A stretch of 30,551 bases of DNA, taken from assembly GCA_965261545.1 (NCBI GenBank), contig CBDHDF010000003.1, positions 1-30,551 of the forward strand, read 5' to 3'. The stretch is from Bdellovibrionales bacterium (GTDB lineage Bacteria > Bdellovibrionota > Bdellovibrionia > Bdellovibrionales > UBA1609). The notes below the pieces were generated by a model that was given only the letters and a program-made list of their open reading frames with translations, ran no database searches and was not told where the DNA came from. Positions 5,607-30,109 of the stretch are shown one piece after another. Numbering within the stretch: position 1 is the stretch's first letter; each line of letters opens with the position of its first letter. Both the position numbers and the translations under genes were made by a program.

Positions 5607-5945
5607 GATTCTTATTCGCCTTCTATTTTCTCAAAAGCTCCAATAGGTCAGTCATCTATATATCCTATTCGGGAACTTCTACTTTGGTTAATAATACCTC
5701 TAATAAATTCCCAACGGAAGGGTCACCCGGCCATATTTATATTTGTGGGGCTTAGGCCATTTAGGCGATTTGACAAGGAGGGTAACTCCTATCACTAATT
5801 TTTTATCTTGACAAGTCGATTTGAAGCTTTTTTCAGTCTTCAATAATACGATTTGAAGTAATGAGAGCGTTTTTTTCTCACTGAGTATCGGTCCAGAATG
5901 ATTTCCTGGAAGTCATCGTAAGCCTCTGGTAGCAATGCCGTTTCC

Positions 5946-6661
5946 TTAAGCCACCACACCCCTCTGCCTCTGCGTTAAGCTATTTCTTTTAAAAGAACTC
6001 CCAGCCCTTTTGATAGACCTTTCATAGCTTCTTTTGAAGTGCCTCCTCTTCTCCATTGAAATCTTCATCAGCAACTTTATCTGCTTCCTAAATTTCTGAT
6101 AGAGCCCCGCAACAAAAAGAGGGATGCTATCCATTATGAAATCAAGAATCAGTTTAAAGTTAGGTTTTTTGTAGTCATTTTTCACCAACTGATTCACACT
6201 GTCTTCATCCTCATTTATGCTCATTTGAATCTTTGTATAATTGAAGAGCCAAAAATAAGAATACAGCTCTTGCAATATTCCATTAAGGCTTGTTGAGTGC
6301 CACTGCTCCATTTTCATTGTCGATGTAAAATCACGAAATGTCGTTTCTATTTCCCAACGACGAGAGTAAAGAGCAACCATATCCTTCTTGTCCAAGGAGC
6401 CATGCGGAAGATTAGTGGCCAAAACAGAGAACTCCCCAGTCTTTGGGTTTTTATACTTATAGAGATGAATGACCACCCCCTCAATAACCATTCGTGAATA
6501 CCAACCTGGGCCATTAAATAAATTTACAATGGGGATAAAAGTAGAGCCTCGCTTACAACGCGCAATAAAGAAGTTACTGGCTTGAGCATGGGCCTTAATA
6601 ATCTCTGTAGATAAATAAAGCCTATCGTAGAGAGTTATGCTATTACTCTCAAAACTACCTA
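5946..6661 (-). pseudogene. IS4-family transposase, C-terminal part
   Basis: ...GSFESNSITLYDRLY (second Asp)...VLATNL...LYSRRWEIETTFRDF (YREK-type signature). Joins in frame to the N-terminal part at 11269-11858 once the insert is removed. Confidence 0.88.
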
Positions 6662-7212
6662 GTTCCTGTCCAGGGAAGAAAGTTAAGTAGTTTTAAGTAT
6701 TTACATGCCTTCCCTTTAGATTTTATGCTTTAAAATGGAGTCCATCAAACATAATCCGTGTAAATTCAGTTACTTACATAAAACGGAAAAATAAAATAAG
6801 TTCCCCCCCCCCCTCTCTCTTGACGAACCTTTCACAGCCCCTCCCTTTCAGTGACTTATGTGGCTATCAACTGGTTACTTGATATGAGAGGAAGAGTTGG
6901 ATCAACCTGTGTTTCCACCGTGGTGATTTCAAACCTCCTTCAGGGAAATAACATTACGTTGCGCATCAACTTCAAAAAATACTTGACGTGTTTTTTCAGA
7001 GAAATAATTTTTGATATTTTATTCTTCATTTATTTTTTATGTAGGTTTTAGGAGGCGTGGGAACCTCTCTATGAGGTAGAATTCTTATCCATGTTCTCCG
7101 AGAACCTCTCTGATTTTTTTCTTCTTAAAAGACATCCTTGCTCACTTTTTTCCCTCAAAAAAACGTATGTTAATATAAAAATTAAAGAGAAACTTTCACC
7201 AAAGGGGGGACT

Positions 7213-7661
7213 ATGCGCCATTTGAAGAAGACACAGTTGGGACTCTTTTCCCAATATCCTAACCACCAACTCAGTACAGAATTGCAGCAAATTAATAACA
7301 TCATTGATCGCCATCCAGAGTTTGCCCATATGGTTCATGAAGACCTTGTTAAAGAAAAGAAAGATTCTGGTGATATTGGTATGACATCGGAGCAAGTTCT
7401 CAAGGTGGCTATTCTTAAATCCATAAGAGGTCTTTCCTATCGTGCGTTAGCCTTTAATCTTGTCGATTCAGTATCCACCAGAGCTTTTCTGGGCCTTGAA
7501 TTGGAAGAAAATTACGCTCACTCCACCTTACAGGACTTGATTGTTCAAATAAGTGAAGAAACTTGGGGAATTATTAGCGCCTCTTTAGTTTCAGATGCAA
7601 GAGATCAAAAGATTGAGCCGTGTAAGAAAATGAGATTGGACAGTACAGTGACGAAATCAAA
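7213..7661 (+). pseudogene. ISNCY-type transposase, N-terminal part (split by the serine recombinase element)
   Basis: MRHLKKTQLGLF...GMTSEQVLKVAILKSIRGLSYRALAFNLVDS...MRLDSTVTKS, ending at the first catalytic Asp motif. G-rich RBS upstream. Confidence 0.85.
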
Positions 7662-7950
7662 CGAGTCCATTACTTAATACCCCCGTCAACGACAGAGGTT
7701 TTAGAGAGCTAAGGGTCACGGACCCCTCCCATCCCCTTTATAGGAAGTCATTCAAGGTGATTTCCATACCTAAAAATCAGAAAAAATCTACTTTTGCTTT
7801 TGTTCAATACAAGAACCACATGACGCTACGCATACCATTGGCTTCTACCAATCTGAACCCCAATCTCTACGATAGGCAGGCCCCAAGCAAACTTGGTATA
7901 GTTGCAATTCAGGAGCTAATTTCACTGACTCAACAACTGGAAGAGCAACT

Positions 7951-8187
7951 ATGTCAATTACACCAAAAGATGTCTGGCCAAGACTGCCAAAAGAAATTCA
8001 AAAGCAAGTCATCAAAGACTTAACTTTAGCCATTGAGGAGATTATATATGAAAACATCGGAATTGATTACACCTATTCACTTAAAGAGAAAAGCCATAAT
8101 ATACATCAGACAGTCGACCCCTCAGCAAGCCATCAAAAACAAAGAAAGTCTCGACCTTCAATACTCACTCAGGCAAAGAGCTACTGA
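7951..8187 (+). CDS. Small hypothetical ORF overlapping the recombinase start (possible accessory or directionality factor)
   Basis: MSITPKDVWPRLPKEIQKQVIKDLTLAIEEII..., a short helical ORF directly upstream of and overlapping the LSR. Function is a guess. Confidence 0.35.
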   Translation: MSITPKDVWPRLPKEIQKQVIKDLTLAIEEIIYENIGIDYTYSLKEKSHNIHQTVDPSASHQKQRKSRPSILTQAKSY

Positions 8188-10093
8188 ATTAGGTTGGCAA
8201 GAAGATAGTATTGAAATTGTCGATGATGATTTGGGGATCACAGGAAGTAGTATACAGTTTAGAGAAGGCTTCAAGAATATCCTTGCAGAAGTGACCTTGG
8301 AAAAAATTGGTATTATTCTATCGTACGATGTCACTCGTCTATCTAGAAACTGTACGGACTGGTACCAATTACTTGATCTGTGTGCTTTTAAGAATTGCCT
8401 CATTGCTGATAGAGAGTCTATTTATAACCCTTCTAATGTTAATGGAAGAATGTTACTCGGGTTTAAAGGTCAACTCTCAGAAATGGAATTATTTACGATA
8501 CGCAATAGATTAACAGCAGGTCTTCTCAACAAAGCCAAGCGAGGAGATTTAGCTCTTAAATTACCAGTTGGTTTTATTCGAACAGAACAAGGTAAAGTGC
8601 TAAAAGATCCAAATAAAGATTTACAAGATCGCATAAATTTAGTATTTACTATATTCTTAAAACTGAAATCAGCCGGTAAGGTGTCGCGATTTTTTAACGA
8701 TAACAACCTCTTACTTCCAAGAGTTGATTTTGTAAAAAGTATTCATTGGAAAAAAACATCCAAGGCAGCCATACTTTCTATTTTGAAGAATCCAGCTTAT
8801 AGCGGAACTTTTGTATATGGCAAAGCTGAATACCGTAGAAAAGACTTAGCTGGAAAACTTAAGCGTACAAAGCTTCCACTTAATGAATGGAAAATTGTTG
8901 TGAAAGATAAATATCCTAAATATATCGATTGGAATACATTCTTAAAGATACAAGAAATTCTAAAAGACAACTACACTGAATATACTCGTAATAAAACAAG
9001 AGGCATACCTCGCCCTGGTAAGGCCCTCTTACATGGGATAGTCTATTGTGGAGAATGTGGCCACAAAATGTCAGTGCAGTATAAAACAGCAACTCGATAC
9101 TTATGCAACTATCTACGCCAACAACATCGGGAACCTACTTGCCAATTCATTCCTACAGATCCAATCGATGATTATGTAGTAAACGCTTTTTTTAAGGTTC
9201 TTTCCCCTGTCGAGCTAGACTTGTATGCCAAGGCTTTAGAAAATAAGTCAAAAATTGACCAAGAGGTTTACAAATCACACATTCAGCAAATTCAGCGTTT
9301 AAGGTATGAAGCTCAACTGGTAGAAAAGAGGTATCGCAAAGTAGACCCTGAGAATAGACTTGTTGCAGATGAATTAGAAACACAATGGGAAGAGGCTTTA
9401 GTAATACTTAAAAAAGCCGAAGATCACCTAGAGAGGGTTAAGAATGAACAGCGTATTCCAACTGTGATCTCTCAAAAAATGAAAAGAGAATTTTCAGATT
9501 TGAATCAAAAACTACCTTCGCTATGGGAGGATAAGATATTGACCAAAGACATGAAAAAGAAAATTCTTAGAACATTGGTTGAAAAGGTTGTCATTCACAG
9601 AAAGAAAAGAGATATGGTTGCACTGAGAATTGTTTGGATTGGAGGAGATACAACAGAAGCTAGCATTCCAATCAAAGTTGGATCTTTTGATGAACTGTCA
9701 TCTTCTGAAACGATAAAGAAAATAATTGCGCATCAGGTCAAGCTTGGGGTGTCTGATGAAGATATTGCCAAACTATTGACCCAAAAAGGATTCAGATCAC
9801 CAATGGATACCACTTTTCTCAGAAATACTGTGAAGTCCTATAGACTAAACAATAAAATCTATCGGAATCGAAAGCACTCTTTTCCGACCAAAGTCGAGGG
9901 AAGCCTCACAACATCTCAAATTGCAGCACTTATTGATGTTAAAGTTCATTGGATTTATCACCATATTAAACAAGGGAGGATCATTGTCAAAAAACACGAG
10001 AAAACAAAGGCTTATCTCTTTCCAGATAAGAAAAAAACCATATCTGACTTTAAAAAACTTAAGTCCGGATCAATTAAAAAGCTACGTTACTAA
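8048..10093 (+). CDS. Large serine recombinase (resolvase + recombinase + Zn-ribbon domains), about 681 aa
   Basis: KAIIYIRQST (catalytic Ser), DVTRLSRN, ILKNPAYSG, LLHGIVYCGECGHKM...YLC...C zinc ribbon, coiled coil VDPENRLVADELETQWE, C-terminal HTH-like tail. RBS gaggag before ATG 8048. Confidence 0.93.
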   Translation: MKTSELITPIHLKRKAIIYIRQSTPQQAIKNKESLDLQYSLRQRATELGWQEDSIEIVDDDLGITGSSIQFREGFKNILAEVTLEKIGIILSYDVTRLSRNCTDWYQLLDLCAFKNCLIADRESIYNPSNVNGRMLLGFKGQLSEMELFTIRNRLTAGLLNKAKRGDLALKLPVGFIRTEQGKVLKDPNKDLQDRINLVFTIFLKLKSAGKVSRFFNDNNLLLPRVDFVKSIHWKKTSKAAILSILKNPAYSGTFVYGKAEYRRKDLAGKLKRTKLPLNEWKIVVKDKYPKYIDWNTFLKIQEILKDNYTEYTRNKTRGIPRPGKALLHGIVYCGECGHKMSVQYKTATRYLCNYLRQQHREPTCQFIPTDPIDDYVVNAFFKVLSPVELDLYAKALENKSKIDQEVYKSHIQQIQRLRYEAQLVEKRYRKVDPENRLVADELETQWEEALVILKKAEDHLERVKNEQRIPTVISQKMKREFSDLNQKLPSLWEDKILTKDMKKKILRTLVEKVVIHRKKRDMVALRIVWIGGDTTEASIPIKVGSFDELSSSETIKKIIAHQVKLGVSDEDIAKLLTQKGFRSPMDTTFLRNTVKSYRLNNKIYRNRKHSFPTKVEGSLTTSQIAALIDVKVHWIYHHIKQGRIIVKKHEKTKAYLFPDKKKTISDFKKLKSGSIKKLRY

Positions 10094-10118
10094 GGGGGTA
10101 TCAACATGAGTGATCAAA

Positions 10119-11034
10119 TATTCATCATCCAACGGATGCATCGCTTTTATATGACTGCATAAGAGTTACAGAAAGAGAATTTAAAAAAGTTCGTAAAAAT
10201 GTCATGAAAGATTTTTGGCGACTTATTTCAAGAGAAGATCTTAAGAGAGCAAAAACCTTGCTTTACAAAATTAATAATTCCAAAAATGATGCGGAAAGAC
10301 TACCTTGCTATAAGGAGCTTTTAAAAATCGCTACCAAATTGAACAAAGGATTACCTGATACCATCAGAAAGATAAAAAAAGAACAAAAATGTGTGAAGAT
10401 GAATGCTTTGAAAAAGAGTCTAAAACAGTTAGAAAATGTTGCCTTCTACCTGGAAAAAATCATCTTTCAAACTCAAAAAAGAGTTATTGAGGGGAAAAAA
10501 GTATCTTCTGAAAAAAAGGTCCTATCCATCTTTGAACCGCATACAGACATTATTGTAAAGGGGCAAAGAGAAGTCGAGTTTGGGCATAAAATCTTTTTGA
10601 CCTCAGGGCAAAGCAACATGATTTTAGATTGTCAGATCCCTGATGGCAACCCCGCAGACTCTGATATGTTTTTAAAAGTTATGAATTCAGTGACACAAAC
10701 CTATGGGGCTTGCCCTGTAAAAGTAAGTGCAGATGGTGGGTTTGCTTCAAAAGAAAATCTTGAAGAGGCCAAAGAGATGGGGGCTAAAGATGTTTGCTTC
10801 CCAGAAAAAAAAGGAATGAAAATATTAAAGATGGTTAAAAGTGCTTGGGTCTTTAAAAATCTTCTCAATTGGAGAGCCGGAATAGAGGCTGTTATTTCAT
10901 TCCTTAAGAGATGTTTTGGTATGAGAGTTGCTTACTGGAAAGGGCATGATGGTTTTAAGAGGTATGTAAAGAATGCCGTTTGTGCCTATAATTTTGTTGT
11001 CTTGGCAAGACATGAATTATCAACTGTCACCTAA
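10119..11034 (+). pseudogene. ISNCY-type transposase, C-terminal part
   Basis: Continues NIHHPTDASLLYDCIRV...KVLSIFEPHTDIIVKGQREVEFGHK...GNPADS...SADGGFAS...WRAGIEAVISFLKRCFGM, covering the remaining D and E of the DDE triad. Confidence 0.88.
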
Positions 11035-11192
11035 ATTTATCCATTAGGAATAACAGCAATGGACCAGGTCGAAGGTGCTAAAATCTTCCAAAGGTAGGGG
11101 TGCGTCTTCAAATCGAAAAAACTAGGGCGCAAGTCGCTTAAAGACCTTTTTCCCCTTAATCTGTAGAGTTTGTGTGGCAAATCTCCAACTCT

Positions 11193-11232
11193 CACTCCCC
11201 CATTGAGGCATTGGGAGGCTCAATGGGGAGTG
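11193..11232. other. Strong hairpin near the right end of the ISNCY-type IS
   Basis: cactcccccattgag ... ctcaatggggagtg, a 14-bp stem with one bulged base. Confidence 0.6.
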
Positions 11233-11268
11233 TCAGAGAACAAAAAATGGGCCTTTCTGGACAGAAAC

Positions 11269-11858
11269 TACCTATCATTTGAATAGCATTGGCGATTTCG
11301 TTGAGAGCGGGAGAAAAGCAAAGATTCTTTGTCACACCCGATAAAACGTCATAAGCATGAGATAGATACATACGTAAGAAATGAGTTTCCATCTCATTTG
11401 GGCAAGGGTACCCACAATAACCCTCCTTTAAAAGATCTTTAGAGCGAGGAAGTGCTAATTGGTCGCCATCTATGGCATAGATATAAAAACCATGAAACGT
11501 TTTTCTCAATGGTTCGTAGTCTGTAATCAGAGATTCAAAGATATCTTTGAAAAATAGGTAAGAAATACTTTGACGTATCTTGCTGAGACTGCTTTTGACT
11601 GGCATGAGAAGCAGGTCACCAAAATGAGTCCATACCGTCTTAAGAGCGATTTGGTAGCCTTCGTAATTTGTTCCGGAAATAAGATAGATAATGGTAAAAA
11701 AGAAAATTTGAGGATTAAATTTTCGATTCCTTTTTTGTTTTTCTGGATCGACAAGGTGCTCTGGCTTGAAGGAAGAATCAAGTTTTGGTAGAATAAAATG
11801 GTCATCTGTGACGCGAACTCGTCATTTGGGGGCTTTCGAGATCAATATTGGATTGCAT
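11269..11858 (-). pseudogene. IS4-family transposase, N-terminal part
   Basis: RBS aaggag then ATG 11858. After an apparent 1-nt shift it reads ...KQKRNRKFNPQIFF...PVKSSLSKIRQSIS...IYAIDGDQLALP (first Asp)...YDVLSG...AIQMIG. Confidence 0.82.
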
Positions 11859-11988
11859 GTGACTTACTCCTTGGTTGAGGGTTGGGTGTAAAATAAAACA
11901 AGTCTTATTCTTGTCGATTTATCTAATGATTTCAAGAGATTTTTCTTAAGGAAACGGCATTGCCTCTGGTAGAATGCGCTTTCAAGTA

Positions 11989-13876
11989 GAGCCTGTAAAC
12001 TATTTTGTGTAACTGCCGAATCATATTAGGATGAACTATCATCCTGAAAGGAGAAGGCAGAATGGATATCAAGACAATAGGCAAGGAACTAGCGAAGAAC
12101 GTCAAGACCCAAAAGGATTTATCCGACATAACGGGTCAACTGATGAAGGTTGTTTTAGAGACGGCCCTTAATGCGGAAATGGACGATCACCTAGGTTATG
12201 AGAGGCATGAGAAGTCTGAGACCCGCAAATCCAACACTCGCAATGGTTACAGTAGAAAGACCATAAAGGGAGAGAAAGGCGAGGTGGAGCTTCAGGTCCC
12301 CCGTGACCGAAGTGCCTCCTTTGAACCTCAAGTCATTCCCAAGGGTAAGACTCGTCTTGAGGGCTTTGAAGACAGTATCCTGACCCTCTATGCGAGGGGA
12401 ATGACGACCAGGGATATTCAAGGAGCTATCAAAGACCTCTACCATGGTGCAGAGATATCCCACTCAGTGATAGCCAACGTGACGGATGCTGTTATTGATG
12501 AAGTTACGGCTTGGCAGAACCGCCCCTTGGATAGCACTTACCCTATCGTATTTTTGGACTGTATCGTGGTGAAGGTCCATCAAGACAAGAGAGTTATTAA
12601 TAAGGCGATTTACCTAGCTCTTGGTATTACAGAGGAGGGTCAGAAAGACTTGTTGGGCCTATGGATTTCTGAAAATGAGGGTTCAAAGTTTTGGTTGAGT
12701 GTTTTGACTGAGCTGCAAAATCGAGGGTTGAAAGATGTATTTATATTTTCTGTAGATGGTCTTACAGGTTTTCCTCAAGCCATTTCAGCGGCTTTTCCCA
12801 AGTCTAAAGTGCAACTGTGCATTGTCCATATGGTCCGCAATTCCCTTCGCTATGTTCCTTCCAAGGATATGAAAGCTGTCGCCCAAGACCTCAAGTCCAT
12901 TTATGGCTCTACGACTCTGACAGAAGCTGAAAAGGCCCTTGAGGAATTTTGTACCAAGTGGTCTTCAAAGTATCCTAATATTGAAAAGTCTTGGCGTAGG
13001 AATTGGGACAATCTCATCACTATTTTCGATTATCCGGATGAAATCAGAAAGATTTTTTATACCACAAACGCCATAGAGTCGTTAAATAGCGTGATCCGCA
13101 AGGCGATCAGAAATCGTAAGATATTTCCCAGTGATCGGTCGGCTTTAAAAGTTGTATATTTAGCGATAAAAATGGCCTCTAAGCGATGGACACGACCATT
13201 ACACAACTGGAAGCCAGCCATGAACAGGTTTGCCATTGAATACGGTGACCGTTTTGACAACTAAGTTTTTTAATAAGGTCCACCACCTGCCTTATAAGGG
13301 GGCTTAAAAGCCCCTCTAAGGCGTTGACAGAAGTACTGGAATACCGAGACTATGGTTAGGGTAATATAGTATGGGAACCTAAATACATGCCCTCTTGGTG
13401 CAGATTTGGGTTTCCATTTTTTTTCATATTTCATCCCAATTCTGGTATTTCTCGAATATCCTAAGTTAAAAAAAATAAAAAAAAGGGGGTAATATAGTAT
13501 GGGAACCTAAACACATGAACCCTTTGATGAGATTGGAATTTCCATTTTTTTGAGAGAGCCATTGCTGATTTTTTTTCAACCAAGATGATAATTATTTATT
13601 TGAGTTCTTTCCAGTTCTGATATGATCCCATTACGGCTCCATAATACAATCAAAAGTCCAGAGTAACTAAAGAGGCCATTATATAGACCAGCGAAGATGT
13701 CCACCTCCCCATTAACTTATAATGCATTGTGACTGACAAAATCGCTTGAAGGAAAAAATGTCAATTATACATTGACGAATAATATGGGACTGTGCTTTTT
13801 ACCAGGAGTGGAGCCACATAAGTGGCTTTAAGATTTAAGAAAAAAATTGCAGTTACACAATTATTTTTACAGTCCC
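11989..13876 (+). mobile_element. IS256-family element, copy 2 (1888 bp)
   Basis: Same TIRs as copy 1. Own 8-bp TSD ttcaagta at 11981-11988 and 13877-13884. Differs from copy 1 by a few SNPs and small indels. Confidence 0.95.
12062..13264 (+). CDS. IS256-family transposase, 400 aa
   Basis: Identical to the 1217-2419 protein except one N/D change (PSKNMK vs PSKDMK). Confidence 0.97.
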   Translation: MDIKTIGKELAKNVKTQKDLSDITGQLMKVVLETALNAEMDDHLGYERHEKSETRKSNTRNGYSRKTIKGEKGEVELQVPRDRSASFEPQVIPKGKTRLEGFEDSILTLYARGMTTRDIQGAIKDLYHGAEISHSVIANVTDAVIDEVTAWQNRPLDSTYPIVFLDCIVVKVHQDKRVINKAIYLALGITEEGQKDLLGLWISENEGSKFWLSVLTELQNRGLKDVFIFSVDGLTGFPQAISAAFPKSKVQLCIVHMVRNSLRYVPSKDMKAVAQDLKSIYGSTTLTEAEKALEEFCTKWSSKYPNIEKSWRRNWDNLITIFDYPDEIRKIFYTTNAIESLNSVIRKAIRNRKIFPSDRSALKVVYLAIKMASKRWTRPLHNWKPAMNRFAIEYGDRFDN

Positions 13877-15325: not shown

Positions 15326-17046
15326 GGCTATATCCGAGTTTCTCGGAGCCTAAAGTCCAAATTCCCTAGGGAAATAGCTAAAAACTGGATGTACAGGTTA
15401 TTCCTAAGATTTGTACATAAAAACACGGAGGACAGGGCTACCAAATCACTTGTGTGGAGAGCCGCCGTTATCCACAAGACTCACCCACAGCAGCGCTGCT
15501 TTATTGTGGCTCCGAGGGCCATAGCCGCAGCGTCGCCATGGATGAGTCTGTGGATAACTGACTCATCTTGGCGGAGTTAGTATAGGGAGGTGAATTGGAA
15601 AAAGAAATGTTGATCGACAATAAAAACTATAATGTACAAAAACGCTTGGGGAAACTTCCAACAATATCCAAATCCCCAGCACACAAGTAAATCATATTCT
15701 CAAAACCCTGTAGGTTCTTAAATCCTGAAGCCCGATTTTTTATGATCTTTAGAAGGCGATTGATTCCCTCAGCCTTGGCATTTGTGACAGGATCTTTAAT
15801 GAAGGAAAGAATATTTTCTTGGTGCTTCCTGAGCATCAAGGCAAACTTTTTCATAGAATCAATGCGTGATCTTAAGGCACGAGTGATCCAGGCATTCAGA
15901 AAATTCGCAGCATGACCTGGACTCACATAATCCCAGAAATGCTCAAAATTATCTTTAAGCAGCCATGCTCTGAATATTTTATTGTTAGATTTCTCCATGA
16001 GGTTAATTTTACGAGTTTGGGCCTTACTACGAGAGGATGAACTGTAGGCTATCAACCAGCGAGTTCCCTTAATAGCCTTTCTGTCCTTCTTGCAGGCATC
16101 TCTCCAAATTTCTTTTCTCACCTCATCCACAGCCCTGTTGAGGGATTGAATAATGTGAAATTTGTCCAAAACGAGAGTAGCATTCTTACAATGCTCCTTG
16201 ATAGAGGAGATGTAGCCTTGAGCCATATCACAACAAGCCACTCTAATTTTGTCTCGCTGATATTGGCTGAGTTCCTTTGTAAAAAAGGAGTCTATTGTCT
16301 CCTTACCCTTACCTTTTCCAATCCAAACGACACAGCCTTTCTTCATGTCGTAAATCAAGGTAATAAACTTCCTTCCCTTAGCATAAGAAATTTCATCGAC
16401 TCCAATGACCTCCAAACCACGAATTTTGTGACCATCTCGTTCCCTGTGGATGATTCGATGAATAAGATCAGATAAGGTGGATGTGGGTATCTTGACAAGC
16501 TCTGAAACGGCTTTTTGGGTCATCTGCTTGGTCAGGGTCAGAATTGTTAGTTCCAGACGATAGGTGACTCGACTGAAGTGGTCGGCCCAAGGAATTCTCT
16601 CCATAATACGACCATGAGTGGGACACAGAACTTCCTTCGGAGAATAATGGAAATAAATGGGGGTACCGCACACGACGATATCTCGCCACACTCTTTCTTC
16701 TAAGCATCTAAGTATCTTACAGCGGCGTCCACAATGAGGACAGCGGCAGCCATTCTTATGGGGTTTAACCCCTAAGTGAAGTTCTTGATTTCGATTTTTA
16801 AATTTAACCCAAGTCACTTTTAAGAATGATAATTTCAACATCTTTATAATAAACTTATTCAAGACCATGGCATCTCCTGTATTATTTTCCAATAAGTAAA
16901 TTAAGAGATTAAACCATGGTTTTTTTATGGGTAAAGTAATGAGGGGGATAAATCATGGAAATTGAATTATTTTCTTGGTTTTTAATGCGGTAATTCTGCG
17001 ACGTCGAAATTAGGCCCATTTTCTGTTGAGAAACTCGGATATACCC
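15326..17046 (-). mobile_element. ISL3-family element (1721 bp)
   Basis: TIRs ggctatatccgagtttctc (15326-15344) and gagaaactcggatataccc (17028-17046). No matching TSD. Confidence 0.9.
15627..16892 (-). CDS. ISL3-family transposase, about 421 aa
   Basis: N-terminal Zn finger CPHCG...CPTHG, IGVDEIS, ACCDMAQGY, VLDKFHII, VTNAKAEGINRLLKIIKNRASGFKN. Confidence 0.95.
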   Translation of the reverse strand: MENNTGDAMVLNKFIIKMLKLSFLKVTWVKFKNRNQELHLGVKPHKNGCRCPHCGRRCKILRCLEERVWRDIVVCGTPIYFHYSPKEVLCPTHGRIMERIPWADHFSRVTYRLELTILTLTKQMTQKAVSELVKIPTSTLSDLIHRIIHRERDGHKIRGLEVIGVDEISYAKGRKFITLIYDMKKGCVVWIGKGKGKETIDSFFTKELSQYQRDKIRVACCDMAQGYISSIKEHCKNATLVLDKFHIIQSLNRAVDEVRKEIWRDACKKDRKAIKGTRWLIAYSSSSRSKAQTRKINLMEKSNNKIFRAWLLKDNFEHFWDYVSPGHAANFLNAWITRALRSRIDSMKKFALMLRKHQENILSFIKDPVTNAKAEGINRLLKIIKNRASGFKNLQGFENMIYLCAGDLDIVGSFPKRFCTL

Positions 17047-17285: not shown

Positions 17286-19184
17286 CCTGAAATCCCTAAA
17301 AGTTGTAACTAGGTGTAGGACTTAAGTCCTGATTATTGTCTGAGAAGGCCTTCACTTTGATTAAGAGATTGTCATCTCTTCAAAAGCATAGTTACAATAT
17401 TAACGATGTCATACACTTTTGAGCAAAAAAATAAGGGAAAAACCTATGTCTATAAAGTTGAAAGCTTTTGGGACAAGGAAAAAAAGCAGGCCAGGCAAAA
17501 ACGCATCTACCTTGGAAGAAAGGATGAGTTTACAGGTCAAATTAAGACCAAAAGAAAAAAGATTCCCATAGGCTCCTATAATGTGGGAGCCTTATTTTTC
17601 TTAGAGAAAATATGCGAACAACTAAATCTTCTAAAAACATTGTCTAAAATTTATCCAGATAATTACGAACATTATTTGCATTTAGCTTTTTTTAAAATAA
17701 TCAAAAGAGAGCCCTTTTATCTTTACGATATGTGGTGTCAAGAAGCTTATGTTTCAAAGAAAAATTTTATGTCGTCACAAAAAATAAGCAATCTCTTATG
17801 TGATCTTGGGAGAGATCAAAAAAAGATAGAATCTTTCTTTAGCGAATGGATAAATCAAGTGAAGGGTTCTGGTACGGTAATGTTTGACATCACATCCTTT
17901 TCTTCCTACTCTATGAATAATGAATTTTTAGAGAAAGGTTACAACAGAGATGGAGAGAATCTCGAACAAATAAACTTAGGTCTGATAAGTAGGAAATCTG
18001 AAGACAATAAAACTCATACGCCTATAGCGTACAGAATCTATCCTGGAAGTATACCGGATGTCAAAACTTTATCGAATATTATTGAGATCATAACAAGTTA
18101 TAAATTAGATTTAGATTGTTTAGTTATGGATAAGGGTTTTTCTAGTGTAGAAAATATTAAGGGACTGCATCGTAAGGAATTGAAGTATTTGATACCCATG
18201 AGTTTTAGAACAAAACTCTCAAGAGAGCTTGCTGTGGCTTTAAATGAGAAAATAAAATCTCCATCATGCTCTTTTACTTTTAATGAGGAAATTTATTCGC
18301 ATTGCAAAGAATCAATAAAAATCGGAGGATTTGATTGTACGGCTCATATTTTCTTAGACAAAGAAAGAAGGGTTTATGAGGAATCTGTGTTAATGAAAGA
18401 GTTGCTTGATTTTATGAAACTCTTTCTTGAGAAAGATTTGAAATCAGAAGAACAAGCTAGTTCCTATATGAAAGAAACTTTAGGAAATAAAAAAAGGTTT
18501 CTCAATATCTCTGATTGCACTCCATTTAAGATTTCTTTAAATGAAGAAAATATTAATGAAGAATCTTCTACGCTGGGTATTATGATATTAATTACAAATA
18601 GTCATGATTTAAAGAAAACAAATATATTGAGTTTATATCGAAACAAAGATATCATTGAGAAAGTATTTTTCTCATTCAAGCATGATATTAATGGAAGGAG
18701 AAGTCGAGTTCATTCTCTCATGAATATGAGGGGAAGCATCTTTATTAATTTTCTCTCTTTAATTTTAATTTCACATATTGATACTGTTATGAAAGATAAG
18801 AAGTTATATAAAAAAATGTCTAAAATAGAAATTTACAAAATGATGGACCGATTAAAATTTTATGAATTAGCTACAGGTGATCTGATGCTTGGAGAGCTGT
18901 CTAAAAAACAAAAGGATATTTTTTCAGCCTTCCAAATAGATGGGCTTCCCAAGACAAAATGATGTTTTTTATCTGTTTCAAATGTGACGGTGGCTGTGGC
19001 TACCACTATGCCTCATCTATCCAATGGGGACGAAGAGGACCTTTCGCAGCAAATTCTTATGAATCATATTAAATATATTAATACTATTAAACCTCTCAAA
19101 CCGTTGACAGCAGCCAATTCCATAGGAAGAGAGGAAAGTTAACGCAATACATTAAACCTAGTTACAACTTTTAGGGATTTCAGG
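17286..19184 (+). mobile_element. IS1634-family element (1899 bp)
   Basis: Perfect 29-bp TIRs cctgaaatccctaaaagttgtaactaggt. 6-bp TSD tagctt at 17280-17285 and 19185-19190. Confidence 0.93.
17406..18962 (+). CDS. IS1634-family transposase, 518 aa
   Basis: YVYKVESFWDKEKKQARQKRIYLG, FDITSFSSYS, KGYNRDGENLEQINLGL, YPGSIPDV, VMDKGFSS, YRNKDIIEKVFFSFK. Confidence 0.93.
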   Translation: MSYTFEQKNKGKTYVYKVESFWDKEKKQARQKRIYLGRKDEFTGQIKTKRKKIPIGSYNVGALFFLEKICEQLNLLKTLSKIYPDNYEHYLHLAFFKIIKREPFYLYDMWCQEAYVSKKNFMSSQKISNLLCDLGRDQKKIESFFSEWINQVKGSGTVMFDITSFSSYSMNNEFLEKGYNRDGENLEQINLGLISRKSEDNKTHTPIAYRIYPGSIPDVKTLSNIIEIITSYKLDLDCLVMDKGFSSVENIKGLHRKELKYLIPMSFRTKLSRELAVALNEKIKSPSCSFTFNEEIYSHCKESIKIGGFDCTAHIFLDKERRVYEESVLMKELLDFMKLFLEKDLKSEEQASSYMKETLGNKKRFLNISDCTPFKISLNEENINEESSTLGIMILITNSHDLKKTNILSLYRNKDIIEKVFFSFKHDINGRRSRVHSLMNMRGSIFINFLSLILISHIDTVMKDKKLYKKMSKIEIYKMMDRLKFYELATGDLMLGELSKKQKDIFSAFQIDGLPKTK

Positions 19185-19843: not shown

Positions 19844-20156
19844 TGAAGACCCCCTCGTTGATTGTTTGTTTCCAAAGATCAATCTTACTGAGAGGATCAA
19901 CAGAGGGGTAGCTCGGCTGATCTGTTTTAGAAGGCGTAACAACCGGTGTCTTATTGAGTGAGGGAGTCTCCTCAACGCACATTTTTGACTCAAAAAGAGA
20001 AAAGTGGGAACTCGGTGTCGGAATAATGAGCCAGCCAGGTGGAGGACCATAACCCGGGCACCACGAAGGTGTTTTAATGTGATGCGTCTTGGTGTCGTTT
20101 ACTTATGACCCAATACGATGCTGCTGTCAAACTCGGGACAAAGTAAATGCGACGGA

Positions 20157-20705
20157 CTATGGAATGGGATGAATATGAAGACGCTTCTGTGCTGACGGGC
20201 TTTTAACAATTTTTCCCCCTACTGTTTGACCGATATTAAGTACCAGTAAATGGGAAACTCTTAAACCCCCTACCCATAAAGAGTTTTGATTATTTCTACG
20301 GACGGGAAGCTGAACCAAAATGAGAAAATGTCCTTGTGAACACTTAAGAGTTTGTTTCTCTTCCATGGAGCTAGAGATAAGGGAGCTATTGGCATAGAGT
20401 TCCCACGCTATCATATGGTCCTGAAAGCCCCCCTCATTGCAATCACCAGAGATATTGAATTGAGATTGATGGGGTTGAAGAAAAATTTCCGACGATGGAG
20501 AATGGACAATGAGACTCAGAAGGTCTTCCTTTGGTTCGCTGCACTTATTGGCATCAACATCAATGCAATGGCTGCTGGATTCAACAACAGCAGGTTCTTC
20601 TACATTTTGACAATTTATAAACATGACCATTACCATTATAAAAGAAAGAAGTAGACTAAGCCCTCCAAGTCCAAAATAATTTCTGCGATTCTTACTTTTT
20701 GCCAT
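20157..20705 (-). CDS. Hypothetical exported or lipoprotein, 182 aa
   Basis: Basic N-terminus, hydrophobic stretch ending FINCQ, several Cys, and an 'FNISGDCNEGGF' beta-rich domain. RBS aagga. Confidence 0.7.
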   Translation of the reverse strand: MAKSKNRRNYFGLGGLSLLLSFIMVMVMFINCQNVEEPAVVESSSHCIDVDANKCSEPKEDLLSLIVHSPSSEIFLQPHQSQFNISGDCNEGGFQDHMIAWELYANSSLISSSMEEKQTLKCSQGHFLILVQLPVRRNNQNSLWVGGLRVSHLLVLNIGQTVGGKIVKSPSAQKRLHIHPIP

Positions 20706-21097
20706 AAGGTCCTTTTTTCGTCGCTCTTCTCCTGTATTATAGGCTTATCCGCCTTATCGACTCATTGAGAGGAATACTTGAGAAAAATTCGACTTCCTGT
20801 TTTTTCAAAATTTGCTTTATTTTTTTCTTGAATTGTATGGAAAGAGCAATATATCATACGTGTGGTAACCTTCATGGGGGGCGCCTTGCTTCCCCACCCA
20901 GCCCATGAATGTTGTGTATTAAAATAGGATTTATTAATAAATCCAGTATTTTAGAGGAAAAACATTCATAGTGACTGCTCAGGGGGAGGGGAAGAGTTCA
21001 AGAAATAGTGCCTCTTCTTACAAGAAGAACTGTAAACCCCTTTTTGTAAACTCGTGTCTACCTGAGCAGTTACAAGCCACCCAACGAAGGAGTCAGA

Positions 21098-21361
21098 ATG
21101 TCAGCTAGAGTGAAGTTATATTCCATGCAGCATTGTCCATTTTGTGATCGAGCCAAACGCCTTTTAGATGACAAAGAAATCAACCACGAAGTGATTGACC
21201 TTACTTCTCAACCTGAAGAACTAGAGAAGCTCAGAAAACGAACGGGAATGAGAACCGTTCCCCAAATCTTTATCAATGATGAGCTTATTGGTGGATTTCA
21301 AGAGCTTTCCGCTATGGAGTCCAGCGGCGAACTTAAAAAAAAGCTTGAGGGAAAGCCATAA
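21098..21361 (+). CDS. grxC: Glutaredoxin 3-like dithiol glutaredoxin
   Basis: CPFC active site, TVPQIFI, IGG motif, 87 aa. RBS aaggag. Confidence 0.92.
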   Translation: MSARVKLYSMQHCPFCDRAKRLLDDKEINHEVIDLTSQPEELEKLRKRTGMRTVPQIFINDELIGGFQELSAMESSGELKKKLEGKP

Positions 21362-21495
21362 CAACGAGATAGAAATCTTGATTCATTCGATTCTTCTGTT
21401 GCATGACTTGAAACATACAAAGTATAAAAAAATTAATATAAAAAAATGTGAAATTAAATAAATACACTAACGTACATAATAAGGGGGATAAAAAC

Positions 21496-22536
21496 ATGCA
21501 AAAAATTTATTGGTATCTCATTTTAGTATCCTGTGGCTTCTTGATGTCATGTGCCGTGCCTGTAAGGCAGCACACTGACGGGCCCAACCAAAGTCAAGGG
21601 GAGTCTAGCCCCTTCCATCGAACCACTGAACATTCTTGCCATGGCAAAAGGCCATGCCAAAAGTATAAACATGATGACTCTATTATTCAACATGAACTGA
21701 ATCTTTGGCAACAGCCCCACGTTGATGTTGATCCACAGGGTTTAAATACAATACTTCCCCTGGACAAAAAGATTCACTTGGCTTTGGCTGAAGAGTCCAC
21801 ACTTCATCCTCCCTTGCATGAAAGAAAATATGGTGAACACAAGTGCAAGGGTCATGGAAAGAAGCACGGTGAACACAAGTGCAAGGGTCATGGAAAGAAG
21901 CACGGTGAACACAAGTGCAAGGGTCATGGAAAGAAGCACGGTGAACACAAGTGCAAGGGTCATGGAAAGAGGCATGGTGAACACAAGTGCAAGGGTCATG
22001 GAAAAAAGCACGGTGAACACAAGTGCAAGGGTCATGGAAAGAAGCATGGTGAACACAAGTGCAAGGGTCATGGAAAGAGGCATGGTGAACACAAGTGCAA
22101 GGGTCATGGAAAGAAGCATGGTGAACACAAGTGCAAGGGACTTCGAGGACATCATGAGAACGCAAAGAAGCGCTTTGCCCAAAGAGTTCTCGTACAAGTT
22201 CCTAAAGGAGGGCTTTACAGGGTTTCCATGAAGCATCGTCATTGGGTGAACATCATTGATAAAACCTCTGGCAAACTTATACCACCTTATAAGCATTTTC
22301 TTATCAAATCAGAGGTCATTAAAAAAGTTGTTGAATACAGTTTGGCAGAGGGCACGCCCTATATGCTCGAAGTCTCTAGCCGCCATGCCTCCCCTTTGGC
22401 TCTGATGGTTTCTCAACACCAACCTGCGCCGGCGTCGCCGCCTGCGCCAATGAATAAACCTTACATTACACCACCAGCCCAAGGCGACTCAACCCAAGAG
22501 CCAAAGGATGGTACTGATACAAAAGAAGAAAAATAA
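21496..22536 (+). CDS. Putative lipoprotein with a His/Cys/Lys-rich tandem repeat (candidate metal-binding), about 346 aa
   Basis: RBS aagggg before ATG 21496. Signal peptide with lipobox-like FLMS-C. (GEHKCKGHGK[K/R]H)x8 plus a partial unit. Globular C-terminal domain and Pro-rich tail. Confidence 0.8.
   Translation: MQKIYWYLILVSCGFLMSCAVPVRQHTDGPNQSQGESSPFHRTTEHSCHGKRPCQKYKHDDSIIQHELNLWQQPHVDVDPQGLNTILPLDKKIHLALAEESTLHPPLHERKYGEHKCKGHGKKHGEHKCKGHGKKHGEHKCKGHGKKHGEHKCKGHGKRHGEHKCKGHGKKHGEHKCKGHGKKHGEHKCKGHGKRHGEHKCKGHGKKHGEHKCKGLRGHHENAKKRFAQRVLVQVPKGGLYRVSMKHRHWVNIIDKTSGKLIPPYKHFLIKSEVIKKVVEYSLAEGTPYMLEVSSRHASPLALMVSQHQPAPASPPAPMNKPYITPPAQGDSTQEPKDGTDTKEEK
21832..22139 (+). repeat. Coding tandem repeat, 36 bp x 8.5
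   Basis: Unit ggtgaacacaagtgcaagggtcatggaaagaagcac. Variation is limited to synonymous or K/R changes. Confidence 0.97.
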
Positions 22537-22577
22537 GTAACCTTTCATGGGGGCGGGCGCAGGGCTTCTCCACACCG

Positions 22578-22615
22578 CAAAAGAAAAAAAGAGGGAGCCC
22601 ATAGAAAGGCTCCCT
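22578..22615 (-). terminator. Intrinsic terminator between convergent genes
   Basis: Stem agggagcc/ggctccct (22592-22615) followed on the minus strand by a U-rich tract. Confidence 0.7.
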
Positions 22616-22679
22616 TAAAATTGTGATTATTTATGGTTATAATCACTTAGTTAAAAAGTGAATGGAAGATTAAGATTAT

Positions 22680-25301
22680 CTAGAAAGTATAAATACCTTT
22701 AAGGTACCAAGAACCGCCATCATAGGAAGCGGCACTAAGTGTGGAGTAGGGAAACCCAACAGTGTGAAAGCCCGCTGTATTTTCTCCCTTAACTTCTGTG
22801 GGATAAGTGTTCAAGAAATTATTGGCACCAAACACAAGGCTCAGGTCATTCATCACATTATAGGTCACCTCAAAGTCAAGAAACAGTGTGGAATCAATCT
22901 CTTGGGATCTATTCTTCCCATTGTCATCACCAGCAATAGTCCCCATATCATCGTAGTGAGCCCCAATATATCGGGCTCTCAGAAGAAGGTCCCAATCTCT
23001 TGCAACACGAGTGCGAGAAGTGACTATGAATTTATTGGTGGGGTAAGTATTCTCAATATCTTCGATGACATCATCTCTAACCACTTGTACATCATTGATC
23101 TTCCGAGTGCCTGTCACATCGACCATATTCATATTGTAGGCCAAAGAAACGGATGTGAGAAATTTAGGAATATGAGTGGTCCAAACAAGATCCAAGCCTG
23201 TATGGCGAGTGTCTAGAGCATTGGTATAAAAGGACCAGTCATTGACCACATTTTCACTATTCTGAATCGAACCCTCAATTTCGTTGCGATAAATACGGTC
23301 CGTGACAAGGGTCTGATAAATATCGGCACTCAATCTCATATTCTTGGAAATTCGAGAAACAGCACCAACACTGGCGTTGATAGACTTCTCCTCAGCAAGA
23401 GCTCTTCCTCCCAGTTCCAAAGCCTTCTCACTTTCGGGTGGTATATGTCGAACGTGAATTTCTTCAATGTCGTCATCACTTGTGTCCCTATCGGCAAAAT
23501 CTGTCAGTGTTGCTCTCAAGTTGGCTTGCCCTGGAGTGGGGGCACGAAAACCCGTAGAGAGAGATCCTCTTAAGGCAAGGGCAGGGGACCAACTATAGTG
23601 ACCTGCTAGCTTACCCGTCAATGTGCTTCCAAAATTTGTATATTGCTCAAATCTTAGGGCATATTGCATGAAGAGGTCATCGGTCATCCCGTGCTCAAAA
23701 TCTGTATAAGCGGCAAAACTTGTGCTGTCATAGGTGCCTGCATCGGCAAGCTTTGTTCCCGGCATTCCGCTCACGCCTCCACCGACGCGGGCAGGGTAAC
23801 TCCCTGGGTATTGGGTATAAATTTCTTGACGCACTTCGAGGCCATAGGTCCAAACCATATTATTAATATAATCATCAAGATTTTTAGAAAAATCGGCATT
23901 GAATCGCATTTCTTCTTGTTTGAGATCTGCTGTATCAAAGCTTCTGACAGCACGGCCTCCATCATCCAAAGGTGCATTGGGATTGAGAGAATTTTTCAGT
24001 GTGTAATCCATGGTGTTCATACCCATAGCCACACTCAAATCGTATTTGTGACCCCACGGGCCCTCGTCCCCCTTTAAACCCGCTGTCACACTAAAGTCAT
24101 TCTGGTCCCCTTCAAGAAAGGGAGTGAAGCCAAGTTGATGAACTTCTTGAAGATTGACCGGCACCGGCGAGGACGAAAGAGAGTTGGTTCCTGTAAGGGC
24201 ACGATTCTCTATATTGCGATAAAAAAAAGACCAATCTCCCTTGGTGCGAGAGTAGTTACCAAAAGCGTATAAATGCCTATCTCCACGGAGCTTACAAGAA
24301 GAGTTGGCAAAAAAGCGAGTTCCAGAAAGAGCGGGCCGCCCCCAAGTTTGGGCGTATTTGTCATTGTTAAAGTGATTTCCCTGGAAGGGAAGCCCTTGAT
24401 CAATCAAAGCCTGTGCATCAGGGTGCTGTTTCCCACGGGAAAGATGCTCCGCACTATTTGTATCCATGGAGAGGTTGAGAAAGCCATTGTCACAAAGCTT
24501 CGTTCCCATATTGGCACTAAGACGCCAATTTTGCTCTCCCTCAAAGTGATTTCCATAAACCATTTCCATGGAGCCACCGCTGGAGGCATCCTTAAGAGAA
24601 AAGTTAACCACCCCTGCCATGGCATCTGAGCCATATTGGGCCGCCGCTCCATCTCGAAGAACTTCAATACCCTTAATGGCAATGATGGGTATCATACCAA
24701 TATCCGCCCCATGGGCCCCCCTATTGGCGGGAGAAGCAAAAAGGTGAAGAACTGATGAACGATGGCGACGCTTTCCGTTGAGCATCACCAAGGTCTGATC
24801 CGCAGTTCCTCCCCTCATGGTGGTGGGAACGACAAAAGCACTTCCATCAAAGGCACGCCCCGATGAAAAGGAGGGGATCAGTGCCTCAAGGCTTTGAATC
24901 ATACTGCCGCCTCCCCCAACAGAAGAAATATCACTGCTATCAAAAACATCAATAGGAGTTGTGGAATTGCCTGCAGAACGAGTTCCAGAGCGAGTCCCTA
25001 GAACGAGAATCTGCTCATAACTGCTTCCTTGGTCTTCTAAATCTTGCTTCTCTAAACCTTGTTTCCTCAAATCTTGACTGTCTTCAAACCGTGCTTGGGC
25101 TTTATGGGGAACTTCACTTTCTGATGAACCTGCTGATGAACCTGAAGTACTCTCTGCTGAGTCGGGAGCCTCGGTCTTACTATTTGGATTGTCTGCGCTA
25201 TGGACCGAACCTCCAAAAACAACACCCAAGACCAGCAAAGAGACGGCAAGAAAAAACGATCTTAATGACCTTGGTGACTTTAATGATGATTGATACTTCA
25301 T
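22680..25301 (-). CDS. TonB-dependent outer membrane receptor, about 873 aa
   Basis: Likely start ATG 25301 (RBS ggaggt), signal peptide, TonB-box-like EQILVLGTR, plug motifs TLVMLNGKRRH and IEVLRDGAAAQYGSDAMAGVVNF, STGFRAP, C-terminal YLKGIYTF. Confidence 0.95.
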   Translation of the reverse strand: MKYQSSLKSPRSLRSFFLAVSLLVLGVVFGGSVHSADNPNSKTEAPDSAESTSGSSAGSSESEVPHKAQARFEDSQDLRKQGLEKQDLEDQGSSYEQILVLGTRSGTRSAGNSTTPIDVFDSSDISSVGGGGSMIQSLEALIPSFSSGRAFDGSAFVVPTTMRGGTADQTLVMLNGKRRHRSSVLHLFASPANRGAHGADIGMIPIIAIKGIEVLRDGAAAQYGSDAMAGVVNFSLKDASSGGSMEMVYGNHFEGEQNWRLSANMGTKLCDNGFLNLSMDTNSAEHLSRGKQHPDAQALIDQGLPFQGNHFNNDKYAQTWGRPALSGTRFFANSSCKLRGDRHLYAFGNYSRTKGDWSFFYRNIENRALTGTNSLSSSPVPVNLQEVHQLGFTPFLEGDQNDFSVTAGLKGDEGPWGHKYDLSVAMGMNTMDYTLKNSLNPNAPLDDGGRAVRSFDTADLKQEEMRFNADFSKNLDDYINNMVWTYGLEVRQEIYTQYPGSYPARVGGGVSGMPGTKLADAGTYDSTSFAAYTDFEHGMTDDLFMQYALRFEQYTNFGSTLTGKLAGHYSWSPALALRGSLSTGFRAPTPGQANLRATLTDFADRDTSDDDIEEIHVRHIPPESEKALELGGRALAEEKSINASVGAVSRISKNMRLSADIYQTLVTDRIYRNEIEGSIQNSENVVNDWSFYTNALDTRHTGLDLVWTTHIPKFLTSVSLAYNMNMVDVTGTRKINDVQVVRDDVIEDIENTYPTNKFIVTSRTRVARDWDLLLRARYIGAHYDDMGTIAGDDNGKNRSQEIDSTLFLDFEVTYNVMNDLSLVFGANNFLNTYPTEVKGENTAGFHTVGFPYSTLSAASYDGGSWYLKGIYTF

Positions 25302-25452
25302 GAATATACCTCCCATGATACCCTCAGTAATTGAGGTTGGTGATGAGTTTATTGTACAAATATGGTTTAAAACACTTTTATGAAATGAGTCCTCTTTATT
25401 TGTCTCATACAGTAAGAATTCCCATAAAATCAAGAAAGTTCACTCAAGCAAA

Positions 25453-25644
25453 CTAGCGAAGGGGCTTCTTTGGAGCACCTGCTTTGGTTCCAGTATGATT
25501 TTTCCAATTCATTTCAATGCTTGATACGTAGCGTTTTTCCCAAGCTTCCCACTTGGACTTAGAAAGATTATGACGTACGCCCCCTTCTGCATCAAAGATA
25601 TTAGGGTTCTTACCAAATAAGAAATTTCGTATTGTTGAAAACAA
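25453..25644 (-). CDS. Small hypothetical protein, 63 aa
   Basis: TTG start with upstream aagga. Fills the intergenic gap and has a protein-like composition (KWEAWEKRY...NWKNHTG). Confidence 0.6.
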   Translation of the reverse strand: MFSTIRNFLFGKNPNIFDAEGGVRHNLSKSKWEAWEKRYVSSIEMNWKNHTGTKAGAPKKPLR

Positions 25645-25814
25645 AATCCCTATCCTTTGCTTATTTTAATACTTTGCTTTGCTTATCTCATTTATTTAGT
25701 TTCCTAATAGACTTATCTACTGTATAAGGGAATATGTCAAGGCGGCTCAAGCCAAACAAACAAACAAATTCAAGCCGACCCATGTCATCAATTTTATTGA
25801 CTCAAGAGGAATTC

Positions 25815-27647: not shown

Positions 27648-27704
27648 CGGATGAAGTCGAACAATGCCTTAGCCTTAATGCCTTAATTCCTTCTCCCTTG
27701 ACAC

Positions 27705-28448
27705 GTGATGCTAGTATTGTATTTTAAAGGAATGTTCACTCTCTCCTCTATGCAACCTCTTCTCCACCATCTTCTGTGGAGCATCCCTATCATAACGACC
27801 CTTTATCTTATATTTACAACATCTCTCACGGGCTTTGCAGAAGTCACGTCCAAGGGTGCCACCCAAAGCGCCACTCAACGCGCAAATAAAAACATAACTA
27901 AAGGTGTGGTCCAAGGTACGACTCAAGGTGCTGCTGAAAAGGCAACCAAAGGTAGTCTGACGACGGCCAAAGCTCCAACCACCTCACCCTTAAAGGCTCG
28001 CCGCTCTCGACAGCCCCAGAGAAATCCAAGCTCACAAACTGTTGCAAAGGCCCTGAATAACCACCTTAAAAAACTTAAGGGTATCTGTGAGAATCACACG
28101 GATCCCCAGAAACAGCTCTCCATTTTTAGCAGCTCCCTAGATCATTTAAAACAGTGGATTCAACATCAAAAAAGTAAAGAGAGTCTCACCCTCAATGATC
28201 AATTGATTTTGAACGAAATATACAATCGAGCCAAAGAACTGCCCTACAAACAAATCATGGGCGAACATGTTCCCACTCTAAAAAAGGCACTTGTCATCAA
28301 AAGTGAATTTGAAAGAATTTATAGGCATTCCTATAACCTTGAATCTGAAGTGTCTATTTTAAACCCCTGGGCCCAAGAGATACTGCAAACTCTCAATTGT
28401 ATTGTGATTAACTCTCAAAATGCCACAACCACTCATGAGGAAAAATAA
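27705..28448 (+). CDS. Hypothetical exported protein
   Basis: Hydrophobic N-terminus, Thr/Ala/Lys-rich linker and helical C-terminus. True start uncertain. Confidence 0.6.
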   Translation: MMLVLYFKGMFTLSSMQPLLHHLLWSIPIITTLYLIFTTSLTGFAEVTSKGATQSATQRANKNITKGVVQGTTQGAAEKATKGSLTTAKAPTTSPLKARRSRQPQRNPSSQTVAKALNNHLKKLKGICENHTDPQKQLSIFSSSLDHLKQWIQHQKSKESLTLNDQLILNEIYNRAKELPYKQIMGEHVPTLKKALVIKSEFERIYRHSYNLESEVSILNPWAQEILQTLNCIVINSQNATTTHEEK

Positions 28449-28477
28449 GAAATAAAGAATAAGGAACAAAAATTAAA

Positions 28478-30060: not shown

Positions 30061-30109
30061 GTGTATCCCCAAAGACTTCATATAGTCATCATTTACCCAC
30101 TTGAACCAT

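Follow-up and report, generated by a model that had tools for sequence, protein, structure and literature searches.

Structure of the element and its attachment sites

The 30,551-bp stretch considered here (the window) was the whole of contig CBDHDF010000003.1 (C3) of a Bdellovibrionales bacterium (assembly GCA_965261545.1), the 4.3-Mb genome of which is available as 11 contigs, designated here by C-numbers. It carries, on the forward strand, a mobile element of 2457 bp (7662-10118, one AA counted) that interrupts the transposase gene of an insertion sequence (IS) of family ISNCY. The eight full copies of the element in this genome were 99.8-100 % identical and displayed identical ends; related elements, which form a widespread family, measured 2426-2515 bp. 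Its repertoire is limited to three genes, one encoding a large serine recombinase and two small ones, without cargo. The element proper lacked a DDE transposase, terminal inverted repeats and a target duplication, all of which belong to the host ISNCY, and it could therefore not be classified as a classical DDE insertion sequence.

A preliminary description of the window had delimited this unit by the word ATCAAA, and this was confirmed: the word occurs at 7656 and at 10113, with a spacing of 2457 bp and no identity past those six bases. Relatives had only two to five bases in common here, which ruled the word out as either a homology core or a target duplication. The crossover was assigned to the final two bases, AA, at the left and right attachment sites (attL, 7660-7661; attR, 10117-10118), because a second junction, located outside any IS, shared no sequence 5' of AA. 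The same dinucleotide is the symmetry centre of attP, the site predicted for the joined ends. Two outer arm motifs, GGGGGTAT in attR and attP (10094-10101) and ATACCCCC in attL and attP (7677-7684, positions +16 to +23), each lie 15 bp from AA, as had been proposed, and both are conserved in the family attP consensus. Symmetric runs of at least eight bases appeared in just 0.05 % of 200,000 random junctions, and the symmetric positions of the window attP were likewise symmetric across 99 related attP junctions. ATACCCCC is likely the binding site of the zinc-ribbon domain of the recombinase, while GGGGGTAT doubles as a ribosome-binding site (see below).

Genes of the element

The recombinase (681 aa; 8048-10093, forward strand) displayed resolvase, recombinase and zinc-ribbon domains (PF00239, PF07508 and PF13408), all above cut-off, and a serine (Ser23) that was invariant in an alignment of 50 homologues. 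These features, together with a crossover at a central dinucleotide between symmetric attP arms, identify it as a large serine recombinase. Its frame was unbroken in all eight full copies. A C-terminal helix-turn-helix was only weakly indicated (HTH_17, below cut-off), and no recognised directionality factor was found in the element.

The first small gene, ORF1, is split by integration. Its DUF5372-like body (7662-8023, forward strand) is startless in the integrated state, the start codon and first four codons being stranded at the right end of the element (10106-10118, forward strand). The ATG lay 13 bases from the element end in all 105 distinct elements compared. Joining the ends produced a frame of at least 90 codons in 103 of these, the other two frames being open in two and none, and it is only when the ends join that the ribosome site and ATG of ORF1 reach its body (103 of 105 elements). 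In 35 of the 105, a possible in-frame start lay within 25 codons of the left end, mostly at codons 15-24; the window copy had none. The reading frame at 7757, previously listed among the tiny ORFs, is only the tail of this longer gene that starts at the opposite end; GTG at 7757 was rejected as the true start since it would drop the most conserved motif.

Relatedness of ORF1 to DUF5372 emerged from PF17342 matches in 15 of 61 aligned members (none for the window protein itself) and from an Atlas score of 0.93 to DUF5372 clusters. A single-sequence fold was poor (pLDDT 49). A model with pLDDT 79 pointed to a small SH3/KOW-like barrel with a C-terminal helix, fold matches being weak (Z at most 4.8), and searches with the fold returned nothing at E 0.001 or Z 5. 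The predicted complex of ORF1 with the recombinase scored 0.60, compared to 0.01 for the best control, with contact agreement between runs of at least 89 % and a partner pLDDT of at least 63. As a calibration, 116 of 157 solved pairs and two of 215 mismatched pairs attained the mark set for this score; 18 of the 157 solved pairs and both mismatches did so at 0.60 or below. These predictions faintly suggest that the ORF1 product binds the recombinase.

The second small gene, ORF2 (7951-8052, forward strand), encodes a conserved peptide of ~34 residues that terminates at the start of the recombinase gene; in the window the open frame continues to 8187. A loose motif was shared by 141 of 159 loci, and no family match above cut-off was obtained. 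A simple consensus scan, beyond whose reach non-consensus promoters lie, found no promoter across the circle junction. A promoter scan of 6600-8100 gave five sites for 3.5 +/- 2.2 expected by chance and was not used.

The interrupted ISNCY element

The host IS is separated into a left arm (6662-7661, forward strand), comprising a terminal inverted repeat and transposase codons 1-149 (7213-7661), and a right arm (10119-11268, forward strand), which comprises the 3' part of the transposase gene up to 11034 and the other terminal repeat. It is flanked by a 6-bp duplication, TACCTA (6656-6661 and 11269-11274). Removal of the insert restored 454 open codons, as initially claimed, and empty ISNCY copies at other places in the genome encode the same protein natively. 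It scored 408.8 bits against the NCBIfam ISNCY model NF033593 (cut-off 325), which, with the terminal repeats and the 6-bp duplication, places the host in ISNCY. Identity to ISRm17/ISRtr6 was ~40 %, and the two TANNTA duplications matched each other in 37 of 43 full-length ISNCY copies. Insertion had been described as adjacent to the first catalytic aspartate. The cut instead falls six codons past the Asp of the DST motif, which we take to be catalytic from what is known of DDE_Tnp_1 enzymes. The left arm contains, in its non-coding part, a C/T tract (6805-6822) whose length varied from copy to copy (elements of 2145-2155 bp), possibly by slippage or sequencing error.

Distribution in the genome

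The element was present at 11 places in the genome, in eight full and three broken copies; at least three of these places were disrupted by other insertions or deletions. The ISNCY site was found at ten out of ten left and nine out of ten right junctions (19 of 20), in a genome containing 6417 ATCAAA words, and 46 ISNCY sites were empty. The earlier view of an IS-sized serine-recombinase element parasitising an IS thus holds for this genome, and the empty allele it called for exists in the assembly. At the single junction outside ISNCY, a right junction at C11:191227, the element abuts a duplicate of the 3' part of an unrelated gene; the intact copy of this gene (C7:145804) matches the junction solely from AA onward. 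Since the joint falls exactly at AA, the recombinase of this lineage has been active at a secondary site.

Occupied ISNCY copies represented two left-arm alleles and four right-arm haplotypes, every one of which was also encountered among empty copies, and identical elements were found in different IS haplotypes. Element haplotype and left allele were not significantly associated (p=0.14). The left allele is defined by a marker 24 bp left of the crossover (position 7636). Its G variant looks ancestral, as judged from the diverged copy C2:359483 and homologue P0135, and the three identical, apparently derived elements carried the now-common T variant; such a pattern would fit at least two waves of integration.

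No attP circle junction was present in the assembly, and no back-joint in public contigs of four of the five listed runs, contigs being prone to drop rare forms; the insertion may be reversible. Run X5 spanned only 244 bp and was uninformative as to the target.

The window partly duplicates other contigs: 20138-30551 was 99.3 % identical to C6:2819-13221, and 6782-11962 matched C7. Possibly C3 is a mosaic, or else a strain haplotig, and the C3 and C7 copies, which share flanks, may represent one locus in two strains.

In one copy (C11:318701-326874) a group II intron (Rfam RF02005, 135 bits) was located inside the left att arm, just before the outer arm motif, so that a member of a family directed mostly at introns here contains one. 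This intron had itself been struck by several IS. The 3' exons of its other copies mostly begin with TA, so that insertion into the att arm may be a chance match. Reverse transcriptase (RT) matches near two broken copies were considered as a second target and rejected, one of them being an intron inserted into the element.

The family and its targets

A protein search gave 5516 relatives among 8000 scored. The best three (P0002-P0004) were 71-77 % identical and the others of the 120 listed at most 58 %. Flanking DNA was considered for 165 homologue loci (five from plasmids, 80 from genomes and 80 from metagenomes), a set to which the DNA around the three closest relatives does not belong. Metagenome loci were often close kin, and the target counts below are consequently not independent events. 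For 110 loci, the window included, the positions of the two ends could be determined, and the ends were conserved.

Group II intron RT genes were the predominant target. The opposite strand of 80 of the 110 reconstructed empty sites encoded D-I-x-x-x-F-D of the RT (strict pattern), and an RT match was obtained in 114 of 142 loci with at least 150 bases of flank. The homologues are not inserted at random but specific for sites in a different selfish element; the expectation that they would share the ISNCY site was not borne out. Two members (L010 and L104) were inserted in the RT motif in sense orientation, with different crossover letters. Other targets were IS66 tnpB (L003-L005), IS3 (L032 and L035), ISAs1 (L058), a recombinase gene (L002) and a dctP gene (L001). 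The member at L002:5081, from Mesorhizobium, sits within another large serine recombinase gene. Insertions in IS66 tnpB used a single motif across three genera and those in IS3 a single motif across two phyla; both orientations occurred for each, and IS targeting is heritable in these branches. IS-targeters occurred at four places on the tree, and their single grouping was rejected (AU test, p=0.00016; 27 of 97 non-redundant rows). These are quick trees with weak deep branches. The Wolbachia member (L082, L083 and L085) displayed eight near-identical copies at unrelated flanks and represents a branch with many targets in a family that is otherwise site-specific.

In the quick tree, the window recombinase and P0002-P0004 formed a long branch, sister to an RT-targeter. 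The family loop RRDRFGD, in which the G was 97 % conserved among 62 RT-targeters, reads RVDFVKS in the window recombinase (residues 226-232). We take it, from the structure of LI integrase, to be a DNA-contacting loop.

A target matrix was built from 74 family targets (training minimum 33.2). In this genome, 19 intact RT motif sites scored 17 to 35, two of them within the training range, and none was occupied; the two best lie at C11:347357 and C10:510059. Sites in IS66, IS3 and ISAs1 were also low (-28 to -66).

Five matches were retrieved for a truncated N-terminal ISNCY protein, the sole one ending at the insertion site being that of this assembly. A single-sequence scan of genome contigs and a viral scan returned nothing.

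Origin of the ISNCY insertions

Taken together, these observations are, in our judgement, best and probably explained by a minimal self-mobile element from a family that parasitises selfish DNA, the present branch of which was retargeted to ISNCY and integrated there repeatedly. ISNCY targeting is likely for this branch, not for the family. Members of the family insert into DNA coding for conserved protein motifs of other selfish elements, the usual target being the RT gene of group II introns. By joining attL and attR at AA, the recombinase would free the element as a circle and leave the IS intact again. On that circle the recombinase transcript would continue into ORF1, by then provided with ribosome site and ATG. 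A protein made only after excision would best be read as a re-integration factor: it could bind the recombinase and bias it toward integration. The circle would then integrate into a further empty ISNCY copy, at the identical codon, and inactivate the transposase of that copy. Copy number would grow through repeated integration into a multi-copy target of no service to the host cell, with extra spread through gene conversion or movement of the whole composite. A mixture of repeated integration and hitch-hiking on the IS is likely.

Several observations weigh against retargeting. ISNCY-like flanks were found in none of the 165 homologue loci, nor was the pairing with ISNCY detected in any further genome among 100 relatives, 389 genomes of the class and 400 of the phylum. 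The ISNCY site scored -57 on the family matrix, a value equalled or exceeded by 10.7 % of genome positions, and it is devoid of the arm motif that RT targets hold 5 bp inward of the attP position. The IS66 and IS3 branches retained a family-like loop, and a loop change is for this reason not needed for retargeting. RT-targeting members L046, L053 and L137 had stray off-target copies. Within the genome, the G variant was carried by five of ten occupied copies and two of 46 empty ones (p=0.001), and one right-arm haplotype was enriched among occupied copies (four of nine, and six of 46 empty; p=0.047); both enrichments are compatible with copying of the composite. Finally, as C3 may be a haplotig, its copy and that of C7 were counted as one event.

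The main rival is off-target landing followed by hitch-hiking: a relaxed or RT-preferring element would have struck ISNCY once or twice, and the resulting 4.6-kb composite, with its terminal repeats intact, would then have multiplied through gene conversion and through transposase supplied by the 46 intact copies. Besides the low score of the ISNCY site, the existing secondary site and the two enrichments, it can draw on two composites, in C3 and at C10:1004700, that were sequence-identical bar a repeat tract and lay at different sites with duplications of their own, and on the eight scattered copies of the Wolbachia member. We nevertheless find it rather unlikely. Four right-arm haplotypes and two left alleles demand several recombination events, and no passenger recurred at the same position in two broken ISNCY loci. 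An active RT-targeter with eight intact copies should have used some of the 19 RT sites, while a relaxed element would be expected to be scattered like that of Wolbachia. The ancestral-looking G variant also fits an older integration wave frozen in inactivated copies.

The preliminary description had further suggested that the element could reversibly switch off its host. A regulatory switch, in which excision and re-integration toggle the IS under selection, would agree with the open frame restored by precise removal, and gene-interrupting elements regulate genes in other systems, as described in PMC10111431. This function found no support in the genome and is very improbable: with 46 empty and ten occupied left junctions, the supply of transposase barely depends on occupied copies (intact ISNCY outnumber interrupted ones by more than 4:1), and at least three of the 11 element places are disrupted by other insertions or deletions. 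An assembly artefact, by which repeat collapse or mis-joins multiplied one insertion, is suggested by the very repeat-rich metagenome assembly and the duplicated window contig, and is the least credible of all, as the copies differ in flanks, duplications and single-nucleotide polymorphisms and as element depth in public short-read contigs of one sample (30-39, with 72-140 for the empty junction, a ratio of 0.28-0.41) was near the assembly ratio, that sample possibly being the source and so not independent.

A broader proposal can be put forward only tentatively. The element might typify an unrecognised class of hyperparasitic serine-recombinase IS that read motif-coding DNA and have jumped hosts repeatedly (from RT to IS66, IS3, ISAs1 and ISNCY) while keeping attP, the present case being a completed host jump in which the ancestral sites are left free and the new site has been taken repeatedly; the circle-only gene would sense excision, and its product would promote integration as a cofactor, opposite in effect to a phage directionality factor.

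The family offers a natural series of recombinases with near-identical attP and very different targets. With more than 100 attP/attB pairs mapped and one loop as a candidate determinant of specificity, the question of how serine integrases alter target specificity becomes directly testable. Parasitism of one mobile element on another could keep group II introns and IS families in check. With a gene complete only on the circle, control of recombination direction would follow a route different from that of phage factors. The element also provides a compact integrase/att set for tool testing, a cofactor probably being needed and use of a secondary site having been noted.

Genomic surroundings

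The ISNCY element is itself inserted in an IS4-family element, the pieces of which (5933-6661 and 11269-11962, reverse strand) were recognised from sub-cut-off fragment matches to NF033592 and, for the left piece, from ends and copy number; the joined empty form (6651-11265) was present in public contigs. Window positions 5933-11962 thus display a three-level nesting, with the recombinase element in ISNCY and ISNCY in IS4. At five or more other loci the same IS4 position held an empty ISNCY in opposite orientation. The window also contained two IS256/Mutator copies, an ISL3 and an IS1634 (1217-2419, 12062-13264, 15627-16892 and 17406-18962), in a genome that is extremely IS-rich, with 60-120 matches for single IS families.

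A second, unrelated serine-recombinase element of 1.94 kb (544-548 aa, inverted ends) was found at C10:177069-179004, C10:1013277-1015212, C11:547567-549502, C11:871157-873119, C6:252655-254590 and C2:454383-456318. Most copies were located in RT genes, at another motif. The two recombinase elements of this genome exploit different selfish hosts.

Comparison with known systems

No published description of the element family was found, in a search that left subscription papers mostly outside and did not extend to the spreadsheet target tables of PMC10083194. The examined parts of that article (preprint 10.1101/2021.11.05.467528) do not mention RT or IS targets; they present DUF4368 as a marker of the multi-targeting clade of large serine recombinases, and this domain was absent from the window recombinase.

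A repeat on plasmid pNGR234a of Sinorhizobium fredii NGR234 (NC_000914.2, 33989-37258) encodes a recombinase 33 % identical over 676 aa to that of the window. Its genes are presumably those named y4bA-y4bD and follow a similar order, with a DUF5372 gene first and the recombinase last. Its flanks, judged by eye, are the two halves of a transposase gene, which displayed no similarity to the window ISNCY. It differs by its four genes, including a helix-turn-helix gene, and its length of ~3.3 kb, as opposed to three genes and 2457 bp. By sequence this four-gene repeat appears to be the nearest named relative, a cousin rather than the same element. The literature search retrieved no paper on its mechanism.

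The clostridial transposons Tn4451/Tn4453 (TnpX) and Tn5397 (TndX) resemble the window element in their large serine recombinase and 2-bp crossover, and probably in junction-dependent expression. Tn4451-type elements are said, in work by Lyras and Rood from 2000, to form a circular intermediate whose junction switches on expression. The TnpX/TndX transposons carry cargo, use many targets and form a promoter at the junction. The window element, in contrast, is cargo-free, was at one site at 19 of 20 junctions, has a single motif-coded target in another mobile element, and its junction would complete a reading frame.

Phage serine integrases (Bxb1, phiC31, A118/LI and SPbeta SprA/YokA) share the domain order, symmetric attP and central dinucleotide, YokA being the nearest solved relative (E 5e-10). 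In RT-targeting members the arm motif of attB lay 5 bp closer to the centre than that of attP, much as in LI integrase, for which an attB arm motif shifted inward by 5 bp relative to attP has reportedly been modelled. Domains and directionality of serine integrases are treated in PMC5499577. Unlike phage integrases, the present recombinase is accompanied by no phage genes and no recognised directionality factor, has an extra C-terminal region and belongs to an element of IS-like size and copy number.

With phage-inducible chromosomal islands (PICIs) and intron RmInt1, the element has in common a multi-copy selfish element as harmless landing site, the gene of which is disrupted. RmInt1, a group II intron, reportedly homes into ISRm2011-2, and PICIs use an integrase of the tyrosine type. 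HE-PICIs located in prophage genes, and a PICI within an IS110 transposase gene, are described in PMC10111431. The chemistry differs, PICI integrase and retrohoming being replaced here by a serine recombinase that recognises motif-coding DNA.

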